NCBI GenBank assembly: GCA_951406725.2
Contig: OX597820.1
Location: forward strand, 50,716,001-50,780,000
Source: Octopus vulgaris
Lineage: Eukaryota
DNA: 64,000 nucleotides
Direction of reading: 5' to 3'
Shown: positions 4,176 to 13,501 of the stretch, in pieces
How positions within the stretch are numbered: the stretch's first letter is position 1
Layout of the letters: each line of letters starts with the position of its first letter
Notes under the pieces: model-generated
What the model was told of the DNA's origin: nothing
Databases searched by the model: none
The model's input: the letters and a program-made list of their open reading frames with translations, nothing else
Made by a program: the position numbers and the translations under genes

Positions 4176-5649
4176 TCGATGTTGGTTGTTTTATTGCATT
4201 GTTTCATTCATAATTTTTGAGTGGTGTTCGTTTTGCCACGTGAATATTATTTTTAATTCCATTTATTCCATTTCTCCATTCATTAATTTAGAGATGTTCG
4301 TTTCCGGAGCGGTTATACTTTTTATACATATGTTAAGTTCCTTGGTAAAGTAATTTTGTTTGGTGTATATGTTGAGGCTTATATGTACTTGTGGGTGTGT
4401 GTGAGTGGGGTGGGTGTTTGTATTTGTTATGGGTGTTTGGTTTACGTGTGTGTTTTTGTGTGTGAATGTATAGGTTAAAGGGATTGCTATATAAGTATGT
4501 TATAGTGTTTAGTAAAGGGAGGTTTTATCATTTCTGTTTTGTGAGTTTTAGCTTATCATGGTAGTTTTATAAAAGAATCCATTCATAATTTTTGTGTTTA
4601 TTTGTCTGTGTGGGGTTGAGTGGGTTTTGGAGTATATGTTGAGGTTTATATGTATGTATTGGTATGTGTAAGTGGTGTGGGTATTTGTATATGTCGTGGG
4701 TGTGTGGTTTACGTGTGTGTATTTGTGTGTGAATGTTTAGGTTAGGGGGATTGCTATATAGGTATGTTATAGAGTTTAGTAAAGGGAGATTTTATCATTA
4801 TATGTTTTTGTGAGTTTTGGTTTATCATGGTAGGTTTGTTAAGGAATTCGTAGTAATTTGTGTATATTTGCGATGTCTGTTGTTTTATTGCATTGTTTCA
4901 TTCATAATTTTTAAGGAGTGTTCGTTTTACCAAGTGAATATAATTTTTAATTCCATTTATTCCATTTCTCCGTTCATAATTTTGAGTGATGTCCGTTTTC
5001 TAGAGCGTGAATGTGGGTTGTATGAGTGTGTGTGTGGGAGTATGAATAAGTATTGTGTTGAAGTATTTAGCTATTTTATTTATTTATAGTTGCCTAGACG
5101 TTTTTATGTGAATGTATAGGGATATATATATAGGTGTGTGGTTTAGTGTATGTAGTTAGATATGGTTATATATAATTAGGTATATGTGTATGGGTGTATA
5201 TATAGTTTATTATTATATTATTATTATTTTTTTGTTTTGTTTTATATTTTATATTTTATATTTAATTGTTGATAGGTTTATTTTAGTTTATATATTGTTT
5301 ATATATTGATTATATATGGATTATATATAGGTTATATATGGATTATATATTTATATTTTTTCATTCATACTTTAATTATTTTAAAATTATTATTTGTATA
5401 TTTTAAAATATTGATATTTTAGATTGAAGTCCACCTGAAGATTGTCGATCAAGACAAGAAACGATTGTAGTGGCGGTTTTTTTGACTATTTATTAAAATT
5501 TTATGTATTGATTAAGTCTTTCCTTGTTTGTTTTGCAAAAAAGTGGTTTTGTCTCTAATAATATTTTATAATATTTTACTATAAAATTGGATTTAATCCT
5601 AAATCTGATTTTTTTCCCTGTAAATTTGGATTTATTCCCTAATATTTAT
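4176..5649 (+). repeat. 5' partial direct pseudo-LTR
   Basis: 4176-~5572 is a near-identical direct copy of 12204-13597 and continues into the 5' UTR of the ORF. Confidence 0.93.
5431..5473 (+). ncRNA. Minimal type I hammerhead ribozyme
   Basis: ccac-CUGAAGA-uuguc(gaucaa)gacaa-GAA-AC(gauu)GU-A-gugg. All core nucleotides and three stems are present; predicted cleavage after A5469. Confidence 0.9.
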
Positions 5650-5707
5650 TATTTATATAATATTGATAATTTTGTATATTGAGTGTAATACCTCAATTTC
5701 GTAAATT

Positions 5708-8221
5708 ATGGATTTTACAGGTAAGATAGAACCGCTGTTTTGGGATTCATCTTTGAAAGATATTCCTATTCCATCTAGAAAGGAATTTATCTTGAAACTT
5801 GTTAATAATGTTAAAGATTTTATTTCTAGAATTAAATGGAAAGCTTTTTACTATAATTTTTATTTATTTAATGATATTGATAGTAGGAATGATAATTTTA
5901 CCTCTAAATTTAAATCTAGAAAGGAACCTCCATTTAATAAAGAATTACAATTACTTGAAGATAGTATATGGAAGGTGGTAAAAAATATTGAATTCCATAA
6001 ATACCCTAATAGAAATAATGAATATTTAAGGAATTTAGCAATTAAAATTAAAGATATGAGAAATATGGATGGTATTATAGTACAATCTGATAAAACAAGG
6101 AACTTATATAAATTAGATGTTAAATTATATGATAAACTATTAGGGAAAGAAATAATTAAAAAATATAAAATTGTTCCAGATGATATTCTTTATAATATTA
6201 ATAAGGCCTCTAAAGTAGTAATGTTAAAATATGAGTTGGATAATAAAACTGAACCTTATGTACCTTTGCACCCCAGAATTACTCTTAAAGACCATAAAGA
6301 TAATTTTTATTCAGACCCTAAAGTTAGATTAATTTGCCCATGTAAATCGGACCTAGGTAAATTAAGTAAATTTATTTTAGATAAATATATTGATAAGTTA
6401 AATAAACTTAATTATTTAAAATTATGGTTTAGTAATAATAATACATTGAAATGGTTTAATAATATTAAAGATAAAAATCGTTATAAATTTATTCAAATAG
6501 ATATAGATAATTATTATTCTTCTATTAATGAAATTGTGTTTAATAAAGCGCTTATTTTCGCAATGAATAAAGTGGGTATGTCACGGGAAGAAGTTAATGT
6601 AATTAAAATGGCTAGGAAATCGCTAATTAAATATAAAAATAAATTATGGGCTAGGAATGATACTAGAGATTGTTTTGATATACCTATGGGAGCACCAGAT
6701 TCTGCACAGGCTACTGATTTAGTAGGTATTTTTCTTTTATCTGAACTCCAATTAGAAAATCTTAAGATAGAGGGTGGTTTATATAGAGACGATCTTCTAC
6801 TAGTTACAAAGAATTGTACTAATAGGAATCTAGAAGTATATAAGAAAAAACTATATAGTTTCTTTAAAAGATATGGTTTAAGTATTACTATATATAAGGA
6901 GAATTATAATGTTAATTATTTAGATGTTAATTTTAATCTTATTACAGGTAAAACACAACCATATCATAAACTTAATGAGAACCTTAGATATATAAATGTT
7001 AATAGTAATCACCCATTTTCTATTAAAAAATCGTTGATTAATAATATAAGTAAACGTATTTCATTACTCTCTTATGATATAGAGATTTTTAATAAACATG
7101 CTAAATATTATAATGAGGCCCTTAGAGGGGCAGGTTATAATAGGAATATTAAATTTTATAATATTAGTGATAAAGATTTAATTGTTAATTTTCGAGATAC
7201 TTCTAATAATAATTATAATTTTGTTAGGTTTAGTGGTAAAAATAATAGATATTATAAAAAAAATAATAAAAATGATAAAAATATAAATAAGAATAATAAT
7301 AATAATAATAAATATAATAATAATAATATAAATAAGAATAATAAAAATAAAAATAAATTTAATAATTATTATAATTATATTGATAAATTTAATAATATTA
7401 ATAATTCCTTAAATGCTGTACATAGATATAATTCTGATAATAATTTTAATAAAATAAAGAATTATAAATATATTTATAATAATGATAATAATAATAAGGT
7501 TAATAAGAATAAAATTTGGTTAATAGTTCCTTATGGAGATCAAGTAAAAACGAATATTATTAAAGAGATTTTAGATGTTATAGAACTATTTATTAGAGAT
7601 AATCGTAAATATAGAAACATTTTCTCTTTTAATAATTTTGGAGTTGGTTACTCTACCACTAATAATGTTGGTAACATTATTTCTTCATTTAATAAATATA
7701 AACTGAATAATTTTTATAAAAAGAAATTATTTGATAATAATATTAATAATGATAAGACTTATATTAATTGTACATGTAGAGATAAATCTAATTGTATATT
7801 AAACAATAATTGTGATATTAACGATGTAGTGTATAAATGTATAGTTACATTACATGATAATAACTTTAAGTATAATAATTACACAAAAGCGGTTTATATA
7901 GGTTCTACTTCCTCAAAAATAAAACTAAGAATCGCACAACATATGAATTCTTTTAAAAATAAAAACTTAATCAACTCAACCGGACTTAGTAAGTACATTT
8001 GGAGTCTTAAATCACTAAATATTAATTATAGTTTAATTTGGGAAATAATTTGTAAAACTAAATCATATACTATAGGAGCTAATTGTTGTTATTTATGCTC
8101 TAATGAGTTTAAAGAAATTTTATTTTATAAGTATGATAATTTACTTAATACTGGTGAAGAGCGCAAAATAAAATGCAGACATAAGTTACTTTACCTATAT
8201 AATAAGTTTCATGATAAATAG
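5708..8221 (+). CDS. PLE reverse transcriptase + C-terminal GIY-YIG endonuclease, 837 aa, uninterrupted
   Basis: RT motifs SDKT, KVRLICP, IQIDIDNYYSSI, DIPMGAPDS, GLYRDD, NYLDV and thumb YINVNSNHP. Linker CTC-x5-C-x5-C. EN motifs VVYKCIV...VYIGST...KLRIAQH, CYLCSNE, LLN, KCRH. Confidence 0.95.
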   Translation: MDFTGKIEPLFWDSSLKDIPIPSRKEFILKLVNNVKDFISRIKWKAFYYNFYLFNDIDSRNDNFTSKFKSRKEPPFNKELQLLEDSIWKVVKNIEFHKYPNRNNEYLRNLAIKIKDMRNMDGIIVQSDKTRNLYKLDVKLYDKLLGKEIIKKYKIVPDDILYNINKASKVVMLKYELDNKTEPYVPLHPRITLKDHKDNFYSDPKVRLICPCKSDLGKLSKFILDKYIDKLNKLNYLKLWFSNNNTLKWFNNIKDKNRYKFIQIDIDNYYSSINEIVFNKALIFAMNKVGMSREEVNVIKMARKSLIKYKNKLWARNDTRDCFDIPMGAPDSAQATDLVGIFLLSELQLENLKIEGGLYRDDLLLVTKNCTNRNLEVYKKKLYSFFKRYGLSITIYKENYNVNYLDVNFNLITGKTQPYHKLNENLRYINVNSNHPFSIKKSLINNISKRISLLSYDIEIFNKHAKYYNEALRGAGYNRNIKFYNISDKDLIVNFRDTSNNNYNFVRFSGKNNRYYKKNNKNDKNINKNNNNNNKYNNNNINKNNKNKNKFNNYYNYIDKFNNINNSLNAVHRYNSDNNFNKIKNYKYIYNNDNNNKVNKNKIWLIVPYGDQVKTNIIKEILDVIELFIRDNRKYRNIFSFNNFGVGYSTTNNVGNIISSFNKYKLNNFYKKKLFDNNINNDKTYINCTCRDKSNCILNNNCDINDVVYKCIVTLHDNNFKYNNYTKAVYIGSTSSKIKLRIAQHMNSFKNKNLINSTGLSKYIWSLKSLNINYSLIWEIICKTKSYTIGANCCYLCSNEFKEILFYKYDNLLNTGEERKIKCRHKLLYLYNKFHDK

Positions 8222-12876: not shown

Positions 12877-13458
12877 CGTAGTAATTTGTGTATATTTGCG
12901 ATGTCTGTTGTTTTATTGCATTGTTTCATTCATAATTTTTAAGGAGTGTTCGTTTTACCAAGTGAATATAATTTTTAATTCCATTTATTCCATTTCTCCG
13001 TTCATAATTTTGAGTGATGTCCGTTTTCTAGAGCGTGAATGTGGGTTGTATGTGTGTGTGTGTGGGAGTATGAATAAGTATTGTGTTGAAGTATTTAGCT
13101 ATTTTATTTATTTATAGTTGCCTAGACGTTTTTATGTGAATGTATAGGGATATATATATAGGTGTGTGGTTTAGTGTATGTAGTTAGATATGGTTATATA
13201 TAATTAGGTATATGTGTATGGGTGTATATATAGTTTATTATTATATTATTATTATTTTTTTGTTTTGTTTTATATTTTATATTTTATATTTAATTGTTGA
13301 TAGGTTTATTTTAGTTTATATATTGTTTATATATTGATTATATATGGATTATATATAGGTTATATATGGATTATATATTTATATTTTTTCATTCATACTT
13401 TAATTATTTTAAAATTATTATTTGTATATTTTAAAATATTGATATTTTAGATTGAAGT

Positions 13459-13501
13459 CCACCTGAAGATTGTCGATCAAGACAAGAAACGATTGTAGTG
13501 G
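13459..13501 (+). ncRNA. Minimal type I hammerhead ribozyme (3' pLTR copy)
   Basis: Identical to 5431-5473; predicted cleavage after A13497. Confidence 0.9.

Follow-up and report, generated by a model that had tools for sequence, protein, structure and literature searches.

The window analysed here, a stretch of 64,000 nt from Octopus vulgaris contig OX597820.1, contains a full-length fold-back insertion of a Penelope-like element (PLE) with a hammerhead ribozyme in each repeat (Table 1). The window copy comprises 1.16 units and a 4-kb inverted arm, whose 3′ end sits within (TA)n as judged from the flanking sequence. The upstream pseudo-LTR ends with the 3′ splice site TTTTAG and, in the sequence comparison at the window locus, is devoid of Inr, exon 1 and donor. 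The end of the intron lies 8 nt upstream of each ribozyme, a feature overlooked in the preliminary description together with a 1.74-kb internal duplication, the first copy of which (9395-11138) carries its own exon 1 at 9883-9905. Unit length varied from 5996 to 8110 nt across 11 copies, with a usual value of ~6300 nt; most of the excess at the window locus is due to the internal duplication. The 8028-nt unit containing the whole ORF, as claimed before, is therefore correct for this locus and does not hold as a constant of the family.

Table 1. Features of the octopus PLE insertion (positions in the window).
Feature	Position	Strand	Details
Inverted 5′-truncated arm of the same insertion	173..4175	-	Equals 9718-13602 plus 5′UTR to 5663; self-BLAST 99.3-99.6%
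Third hammerhead, identical core	368..410	-	Overlooked in the preliminary description
Copy of exon 1 (GTAAGT donor) within inverted arm	2253..2275	-	Second copy at 4010-3988
Upstream pseudo-LTR	4176..5422	+	Just the final 1247 nt of the intron, equal to 12204-13450
Hammerhead 1, minimal type I	5431..5473	+	Predicted cut after A5469
5′UTR	5470..5707	+	Includes both fixed sites at which genomic copies have their 3′ ends (5570-5574, 5659-5663)
Intact 837-aa ORF	5708..8221	+	RT, Asn-rich insert, linker, C-terminal GIY-YIG endonuclease
3′UTR and region upstream of start site	8222..11618	+	From self-comparison
Exon 1, 23 nt	11619..11641	+	Putative transcription start A11619 in TCACTTT; donor GTAAGT at 11642
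GT-AG intron, 1809 nt	11642..13450	+	Kept in long copies, spliced out of short ones
Hammerhead 2, identical to hammerhead 1	13459..13501	+	Predicted cut after A13497
Tail beyond second cut	13498..13602	+	Stops at +105 site in (TA)n

The start AUG of the ORF is located 239 nt downstream of the first predicted cut, in agreement with the ~240 nt reported previously, and a single upstream AUG, at 5503, opens a frame of 2 codons. Alignment of the protein to 22 homologues identified an RT with KWK, DKT (SDKTRN) and YRDD and an endonuclease with VVY...YIG. The linker carries CxCX5C (CTCRDKSNC), CCHH is absent, the GIY-YIG core has one Cys, and the endonuclease CxxC (CYLC) and CxH (CRH) are found beside E and N residues. 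Searches with the 837-aa protein gave no real match in Pfam-A and 0 matches among PDB sequences. The single ORF with an RT and, C-terminally, a GIY-YIG endonuclease, the partial tandem arrangement (pseudo-LTRs), the inverted 5′-truncated copy, the tail at one end and the spliceosomal intron kept in genomic copies are those of EN+ PLEs. By its motifs and by the published description, the element agrees with the Hydra clade, a group of C-terminal EN+ PLEs described by Craig et al. 2021 (PMC8557442), which includes Hydra-1_Obim. The single ORF, the change from DKG to DKT, the CxCX5C linker without CCHH, the CxxC and CxH motifs, the canonical hammerhead, the inverted 5′-truncated arm and the (TA)n target, the latter observed at both ends of the window copy and in many sampled copies, are all shared with that clade. 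The N-terminal motif is KWK here and RWK there (RW(K/R) in most homologues), and the 6-8 kb unit with its 1.8-kb intron differs from the listed families, which are under about 3 kb; the wording “generally <3 kb” for the clade is a description of size and not a strict criterion. Furthermore, the Hydra-1_Obim hammerhead in the supplement of the same paper is not the same as that of the octopus element. Naiad/Chlamys elements (N-terminal endonuclease, DKA, no canonical hammerhead) were dropped as candidates because the endonuclease is C-terminal here, and membership among non-LTR retrozymes (tandem units without coding capacity, every one bearing a hammerhead) was rejected in view of the autonomous ORF and of array units at loci L245 and L254 that carry no ribozyme. 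The family is young and several of its ORFs are intact.

The hammerhead, CCAC-CTGAAGA-TTGTC-GATCAA-GACAA-GAAA-C-GATT-G-TA-GTGG, shows the CUGANGA, GAAA and NUH core with stems I-III of a minimal type I ribozyme. The GUA triplet places the predicted cuts 8028 nt apart, and the two identical in-sense copies described earlier were found in the sequence at these positions. Stems I, II and III of hammerhead 1 have 4, 5 and 2 bp, respectively, and stem III includes ACGAUUGU, which had been noted as self-complementary with G-U pairs and can indeed pair with itself over 8 bp, two of them G-U, at -5.8 kcal/mol. The 43-nt motif has 452 exact copies in the genome as against 0 for the reversed control, and therefore it is not a product of chance. 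Among 36 distinct variants, loop II is free to vary and UGUC/GACA is retained in nearly all, whereas the constancy of the core is no evidence because the search pattern fixed it. Stem III reads ACAATTGT in 24 variants, ACGATTGT in 4, ACGATCGT in 1 and otherwise in 7, so that a palindrome permitting a dimer is present in 29/36, compared with the 14% of random 4-nt loops that would pair by chance; the commonest forms are the self-complementary 8-mer, and one compensatory form occurs. The maintenance of the palindromic stem III and of stem II across subfamilies, with loop II drifting, suggests selection on the active fold.

In a constrained fold, exon 1 is able to lengthen stem I. None of the 63 Rfam matches obtained for the window at E≤1 was a hammerhead, and folding without constraints failed to produce the ribozyme structure (z -0.44 to 0.48; P about 0.001); these negatives were not counted as disproof. 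Splicing as an on-switch of the ribozyme was considered and discarded, the fold probability being similar in spliced (0.0007) and unspliced (0.0009) RNA. The ends of genomic copies suggest that the ribozyme likely cuts in the animal.

The templates used by the family were approached through more than 2000 arms of recent genomic copies. Copies have one of two fixed 3′ ends, located 105 or 194 nt beyond the cut (5570-5574 and 5659-5663), with 66 of the 73 arms listed ending at 5570-5575 or 5651-5659; these 73 are merged rows from 100. By analogy with the Anolis element, we infer that reverse transcription starts at these fixed ends. Where a copy is spliced and its ribozyme uncut, it stops at the Inr, where 59/64 arms reaching +1 halt at most 6 nt upstream and the other 5 extend by at least 7 nt. 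Unspliced copies pass the Inr: 156 have exon 1 and donor, and 148 have the sequence upstream. This pattern points to a transcription start at A11619. The splice joint (11641-13454, with ATTG between) was found in contigs of two presumed-RNA runs from one study, where spliced DNA copies could look alike, and the contigs of presumed-RNA sequencing runs showed neither RNA ends nor cleavage nor circles.

A second group of copies ends at or just past the predicted cut. In a sample of 100 3′-anchored arms from one contig, merged into 67 events, a script placed the end of the longest arm in 5470-5489 in 12 of the 67 events and in 5432-5469 in 2. After correction by hand, 14 events fell in 5470-5489 against 2 in 5432-5469 (p 2e-5) and 7 in 5490-5536 (p 5e-4). 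The maximum of this pile-up lies 5-20 nt past the cut (14 arms in 5474-5489 vs 2 at 5470-5471). Genome-wide, 10/21 filtered ends are at 5470-5471 (p 0.02), but about 13 arms, read by eye, have their ends within stem III. At individual loci, G5470 is the start of both arms of L193 and the site of a jump in L076, the ORF-bearing arm of L255 starts at 5469/5470, and ends or joints at G5470 are also present in L122, L126, L127 and L134. In L130 a poly(A) end is joined to G5470, so that the 5′ end is cut while the 3′ ribozyme is uncut and polyadenylated; this is the only copy with a poly(A) joint that we found. The partner arm crosses an intact ribozyme in 3/16 events ending at 5468-5471, and 63 of the 100 sampled arms traverse it, so that, on the sequence of the copies, many templates are uncut.

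The abundance of uncut arms is one argument for a scenario in which cleavage is rare and unneeded and uncut read-through RNAs serve as templates. The ends at 5470-5505 would then reflect stalling of the RT at the folded ribozyme or trimming by a 5′ exonuclease up to a bound protein, and the repeats would be homogenised either through switches in the terminal redundancy or because the element inserts into its own tail. The peak lies downstream of the cut at a place where stem I, if extended, could end, and this fits the scenario, as do small units that also begin at 5485-5511, the data on the Anolis element (PMC11167929) and the weak activity of metazoan PLE hammerheads in vitro (PMC4209133). 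It is difficult to reconcile, however, with the ends and joints at G5470 in the eight loci named above, twice in L193, and with the retention of stem II and the palindromic stem III across subfamilies while loop II drifts, and we consider it rather unlikely.

The two repeats of a locus were compared in 9 full-length loci, leaving out those with less than 480 nt of upstream repeat compared or with one repeat missing from the stretch (C4, C6, C21, C7b, C8a). At 25/27 non-singleton sites the allele was common to both repeats of the same loci, at 0 it was shared by position, and the repeats differed by 2.4 within a locus vs 10-12 between loci. These results support, at the family level and from sequence, the derivation of both repeats of a locus from one template. 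The intron was kept in the upstream repeat at 16/16 loci recovered with a query biased toward the intron, and a search by an unbiased ORF-start pattern revealed no recognisable spliced leader ahead of the ORF in 36 mapped loci, the old copy L248 being ambiguous. Exon 1 is contained in 3/16 upstream repeats, which run beyond it, and two ORFs in tandem were found in 0/16 loci.

Small closed units were also documented. Locus L245 carries a 250-nt unit 13 times with one junction, 10 units on one arm and 3 on the other, between normal ends; 6/7 variable sites are private to a single unit and the junction has only 3 nt of microhomology. One junction repeated 13-fold over both arms is what would be expected of rolling-circle copying, and L209 and L251 likewise show one junction on both arms. 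The copying of small closed templates as multimers is thus supported at the family level. The small closed units join 5438-5511 to 5764-5808, with the junction not at the cut. The 85-nt array of L254 was not accepted as support for a circle, as variants are shared blockwise among its units and the array follows an internal direct repeat.

The junctions of L246, two in number, differ between successive rounds, and this speaks for jumps on linear RNA. A linear RNA with template jumping would require cleavage of the 5′ ribozyme only and no ligated circle: the RT would come off at G5470 and transfer to the repeat at the 3′ end, either of the RNA it was copying or of a sister RNA, like the strand transfer of LTR elements. 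The L130 joint, with its uncut 3′ ribozyme, and the jumps with 0-9 extra bases in L246, L215 and L253 are what such transfers would leave, and shared repeats and the kept intron are accounted for equally well. Against this, the 13 identical junctions on both arms of L245, with their minimal microhomology, are easier to obtain from a covalent circle, and copies longer than one unit require two seamless transfers if copying begins in the 5′UTR. We regard template jumping as a serious but less than likely explanation.

The reading that we prefer, to which we assign a probability of about 0.42 from sequence, is that the ribozyme clips off a capped spliced leader and the unit is closed to a circle that is reverse-transcribed more than once. 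As suggested by the copy ends, transcription would start at the Inr in the upstream repeat, and the 23-nt exon 1 would be joined to the site 8 nt ahead of the ribozyme while the intron in the 3′ repeat is left unspliced. Cleavage may require a partner ribozyme, through the palindromic stem III, or the element's protein; cleavage assisted by protein has been demonstrated in vitro, with the Anolis element as the example (PMC11167929). By analogy with this element, two RT runs primed on opposite (TA)n strands would begin 105 and 194 nt beyond the cut and produce the two arms. On uncut mRNA the RT would run off at the cap and give short spliced copies, and on cut linear RNA it would run off near G5470 and give still shorter ones. 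Alone, a linear cut-to-cut RNA could not give rise to a full copy, given that the RT begins just 105 or 194 nt away from the 5′ end of that RNA. With the 5′ end left by one cut linked to the 3′ end left by the other, the RT could pass the joint scar-free, copy the 3′ repeat in its unspliced form followed by ORF and 5′UTR, and enter a second round, by which the upstream repeat would be rebuilt from the 3′ repeat; its origin from an unspliced repeat would explain the intron in long copies.

If this is true, one mechanism covers both pseudo-LTR regeneration and intron retention, the spliced mRNA and the cut linear RNA are dead-end templates, and small circles are the source of new tandem arrays. 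That the copies are a fossil record of the whole Penelope cycle, with an in vivo cut, a ligated circle and rolling-circle RT from two internal start sites, is a tentative proposal that falls short of even odds. The uncut state of most sampled arms, the peak past the cut and the off-cut junctions of small units run against cutting and circularisation. Two published observations also weigh against it: the Anolis element inserts in vitro even when its ribozyme is mutated and no RNA-seq reads end at its cut (PMC11167929), and Naiad elements spread without canonical hammerheads (PMC8557442).

At the window locus, where neither exon 1 nor Inr precedes ribozyme 1, the element's own promoter would not yield an RNA with both ribozymes, and the window copy is probably a product of the proposed cycle and not a donor. 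Support for the cut, circularisable RNA suggested earlier comes from family copies, with their ends at or after the cut and their closed units, and not from this locus, which has no start site of its own upstream of the ORF. That the two ribozymes pair with each other over the 8 kb between them and free an 8028-nt RNA from the window locus was proposed on the grounds that they are identical and that stem III is self-complementary. We consider it very improbable: besides the missing start site upstream of ribozyme 1 and the variable unit length (5996-8110), a read-through RNA would include the 4-kb inverted arm, which is able to pair with the 3′ repeat, and pairing between two RNAs or help by a protein fits as well.

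The element type and the circle idea are already known. Dimer cleavage and a ligated circle as the template of more-than-unit copies were proposed by Cervera and de la Pena in 2014 (PMC4209133; reviewed in PMC6765202), so the idea is not new, and the octopus hammerhead resembles the minimal PLE hammerheads of those papers in being type I, with a short palindromic stem III and one per repeat. As in PAc, a Poseidon element found in Anolis (Frangieh et al. 2024, PMC11167929), the genomic tail is defined by a pair of internal RT start sites beyond the ribozyme and both strands of an AT-rich target are primed. PAc is cut within the ORF, with no RNA ends at the cut, whereas the octopus element has its predicted cut ahead of the AUG and its start sites about 90 nt apart in the 5′UTR. 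The sections of Schostak et al. 2008 (PMC2377424) used here describe for Drosophila virilis Penelope an Inr promoter in the upstream repeat, a short exon 1, a 5′ intron ending at the ribozyme and kept in genomic copies, and a partial tandem with an inverted repeat, all as in the octopus element; the intron is 75 nt there and 1809 nt here. Spliced genomic copies, about a third of arms in octopus, are not mentioned in those sections, which describe pseudo-LTR regeneration as lacking an obvious mechanism. Non-LTR retrozymes also have a type I hammerhead, their tandem arrays are thought to come from circular RNA and an origin from PLE repeats has been argued (bioRxiv 10.64898/2026.07.22.740005); they are non-coding and every unit bears a ribozyme, whereas the octopus element is autonomous and its small arrays are mostly without one.

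What PLE hammerheads do, how the partial tandem arises and why introns are retained are called open questions in PMC11167929, PMC8557442 and the consulted sections of PMC2377424. Our literature search, with subscription papers mostly outside its reach, found no comparable copy-based evidence, and the new part appears to be that the more than 2000 recent copies, by their sequence, separate three template classes and include multimers from closed units. The analysis provides exact positions for experimental testing: start 11619, splice 11641/13451, cut 5469, and RT starts 5574 and 5663.

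Self-comparison and the flanking sequence showed that the window locus is a single fold-back insertion in (TA)n, whose parts are listed in the table. The ORF product contains a reverse transcriptase (RT) followed by a C-terminal GIY-YIG domain, with the DKT, CxCX5C, CxxC and CxH motifs, a layout and motif set in common with the Hydra clade of Penelope-like elements (PLEs) as given in PMC8557442; those protein homologues that bear organism names, a minority, are cephalopod. As the preliminary description had it, the two direct hammerheads are identical in sequence and the unit between their predicted cuts holds the whole ORF, starting about 240 nt past the first. 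The 8028-nt length that it singled out is, however, nothing special: the unit spans 5996-8110 nt across 11 loci with both ribozymes, and most of the excess here is a 1.74-kb duplication within the 3′ part. The three repeat copies in the window differ at 8 internal sites, of which 3, 2 and 3, respectively, are private. In some other copies the 1.74-kb segment, which includes exon 1 (11619-11641), stands three and four times in tandem (G000:C1:166324818-166328321, C6:82988127-82993359), so that the number of promoters differs within the family.

Features of the window (window coordinates)
Feature	Position or layout	Strand	Basis or detail
Hammerhead 1	predicted cut after 5469	+	sequence inspection, self-comparison
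Hammerhead 2, identical to hammerhead 1	predicted cut after 13497	+	sequence inspection, self-comparison
Third identical hammerhead	410-368	-	sequence self-comparison
Intact ORF, 837 aa	start 239 nt past first predicted cut	+	ORF reading
Inverted arm, 4.0 kb	173-4175	-	meets the direct arm head to head
Direct arm	1247 nt repeat, ribozyme, ORF, 5.2 kb 3′ sequence, ribozyme, tail	+	self-comparison
Unrelated hammerhead-like core CTGATGA...GAAAC	22116-22170	+	stems not convincing
PIF1-like helicase ORF with upstream frame	53023-55055	-	PF05970, E 7e-33
Short inverted-repeat element	13895-14493		arms 162 nt, 97.5%
Short inverted-repeat element	49232-49932		arms 283 nt, 100%

Many short copies carry the 23-nt piece 11619-11641 fused to 13451/5423, between GTAAGT and TTTTAG. 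A11619 was reached by 64 arms, 5 of which continued at least 7 nt further upstream, running 25-280 nt beyond it. Because spliced arms halt there while unspliced copies ignore that point (156 contain exon 1 plus its donor versus 148 containing the sequence ahead of it, by sequence patterns that are not strictly nested), A11619 is likely the transcription start; it lies in TCACTTT, which we take to be Inr-like. Spliced mRNA with an uncut ribozyme is then a frequent dead-end template. The exon/intron layout resembles that of D. virilis Penelope (PMC2377424, PMC4209133). The upstream repeat of the window begins 585 nt downstream of the start-site equivalent and this copy thus has no promoter of its own ahead of the ORF, which speaks against the locus as a special source of unit RNA. 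Four spliced copies (L041, L065, L078, L094) have 4 additional bases (GTAA or GAAA) past exon 1, which suggests a second donor 4 nt downstream.

Across 9 loci, the variants at 25 of 27 non-singleton sites occur in both repeats of whichever loci carry them, which points to a single template for the two repeats. With an intron-containing query, the intron was present in the repeat ahead of the ORF in 16/16 loci; three of these repeats run 440-1370 nt beyond the transcription start, and in no case does the repeat begin there. An unbiased ORF-start pattern gave 90 matches, many within two arrays; among 36 loci from this set no spliced leader before the ORF was recognised, and the other matches lie at loci already found. 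Since the intron is kept and no repeat starts at the start site, the upstream repeat was not copied from the 5′ end of the mRNA itself. It has the look of a second round of copying across the unspliced 3′ repeat, which could equally come about on a circle, through a jump from the cut end, or by homologous switching. At the other end, family arms terminate 105 or 194 nt downstream of the cut, usually one of each per insertion. Two such tail ends in the Anolis element PAc are internal reverse transcription start sites (PMC11167929), and by analogy the +105 and +194 ends may be the same. If copying begins there, cDNA from a linear RNA starting at the cut would be only 100-200 nt, unless the ends were joined or jumped.

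Copy ends were classified by script for arms anchored at 5537, taking the first 100 of these on contig C1 (3408 such anchors genome-wide): 25 were unspliced, 34 spliced, 4 began at exon 2, 3 within the ribozyme, 2 at 5470-5471, 14 at 5474-5489 and 9 at 5490-5505, and 9 were shorter. Taking the longest arm per event, 12/67 ended within 5470-5489 and 2/67 within 5432-5469; hand reading moved two further events into the former interval (14 versus 2, p 2e-5). Fold-backs with a short centre numbered 69, against 12 with a centre 31 nt longer, and a filtered genome-wide pattern returned 23 matches, 2 of them deletions, with ends at 5470-5471 in 10/21. Exact G5470 cases were both arms of L193, the poly(A) joint of L130, a jump in L076 and the ORF-bearing arm of L255. 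Against cleavage count the position of the peak, 5-20 nt downstream of the predicted cut, the roughly 13 arms that terminate within stem III and the 3/16 near-cut arms whose partner crosses an intact ribozyme; RT stalling or exonuclease trimming is a possible source of the pile-up. These copies suggest that the hammerhead probably cleaves in vivo, and cleavage being irrelevant to copying appears unlikely. In the Anolis element, protein-assisted cleavage of the ribozyme has been demonstrated (PMC11167929). L130 (G000:C8:73216751-73219783) reads through an uncut ribozyme and 40 nt to ATTAAA and a 20-A run, then restarts at the cut site; a family search found no other copy of this type. Position 5503, an upstream AUG 34 nt past the cut, is the 5′ side of three independent joints (L215, L246, L253). 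The short fold-back copy L182 (G000:C1:41685100-41686000) has an identical unrelated sequence central in both arms, possibly captured host RNA.

The reading that we tentatively prefer, at a probability of about 0.4, is that the cut unit is closed and copied more than once. L245 (G000:C9:50395300-50400600) is an otherwise normal fold-back insertion in which a 250-nt piece (5511-5764, 5′UTR/ORF start) recurs 13 times with one junction, the two arms holding 10 and 3 units; 6/7 variable sites are private among its 11 whole units, and it looks like one-shot multimer synthesis. L209 and L251 each have one junction common to both arms, and L246 has two different junctions, which would fit a jump on linear RNA, a somewhat unlikely explanation overall. 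Taken together, these loci indicate that the element's RT is able to make many successive copies of a unit that is closed or end-jumped. The junctions of the small repeated units are not at the ribozyme cut. For cutting followed by closure, the support from family copies is real but indirect. A satellite of about 42 copies of an 85-nt 5′UTR piece (L254, G000:C5:119296400-119302200) was rejected as a closed-template product and read as DNA-level expansion, as its variants are shared blockwise.

Exact matches to the ribozyme motif number 452 across the 2.8-Gb genome, versus 0 for the control; neither an Rfam search nor unconstrained folding of the window hammerheads detected a ribozyme. Folding computation agreed with the earlier observation that stem III is self-complementary, its 8-mer pairing with itself. 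Among 36 hammerhead variants stem III is ACAATTGT in 24, ACGATTGT in 4 and ACGATCGT in 1, each self-complementary, and loop II is variable; these forms support a dimer fold, with a partner in the same RNA, 6-8 kb off, or in another RNA alike. Lunse 2017 is reportedly among the sources for such a fold. Dimer folding of PLE hammerheads is described in PMC4209133 and PMC6765202. The interpretation in the preliminary description repeats an already published hypothesis; its exact form, in which the two ribozymes of this locus pair across 8 kb and release an 8028-nt RNA, is very improbable.

Elsewhere in the window, the core at 22116-22170 is probably the end of a different PLE family, with no accompanying ORF homology within the window. 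The helicase ORF is likely a Helitron remnant, and the two short inverted-repeat elements are either MITE-like or other fold-back insertions.
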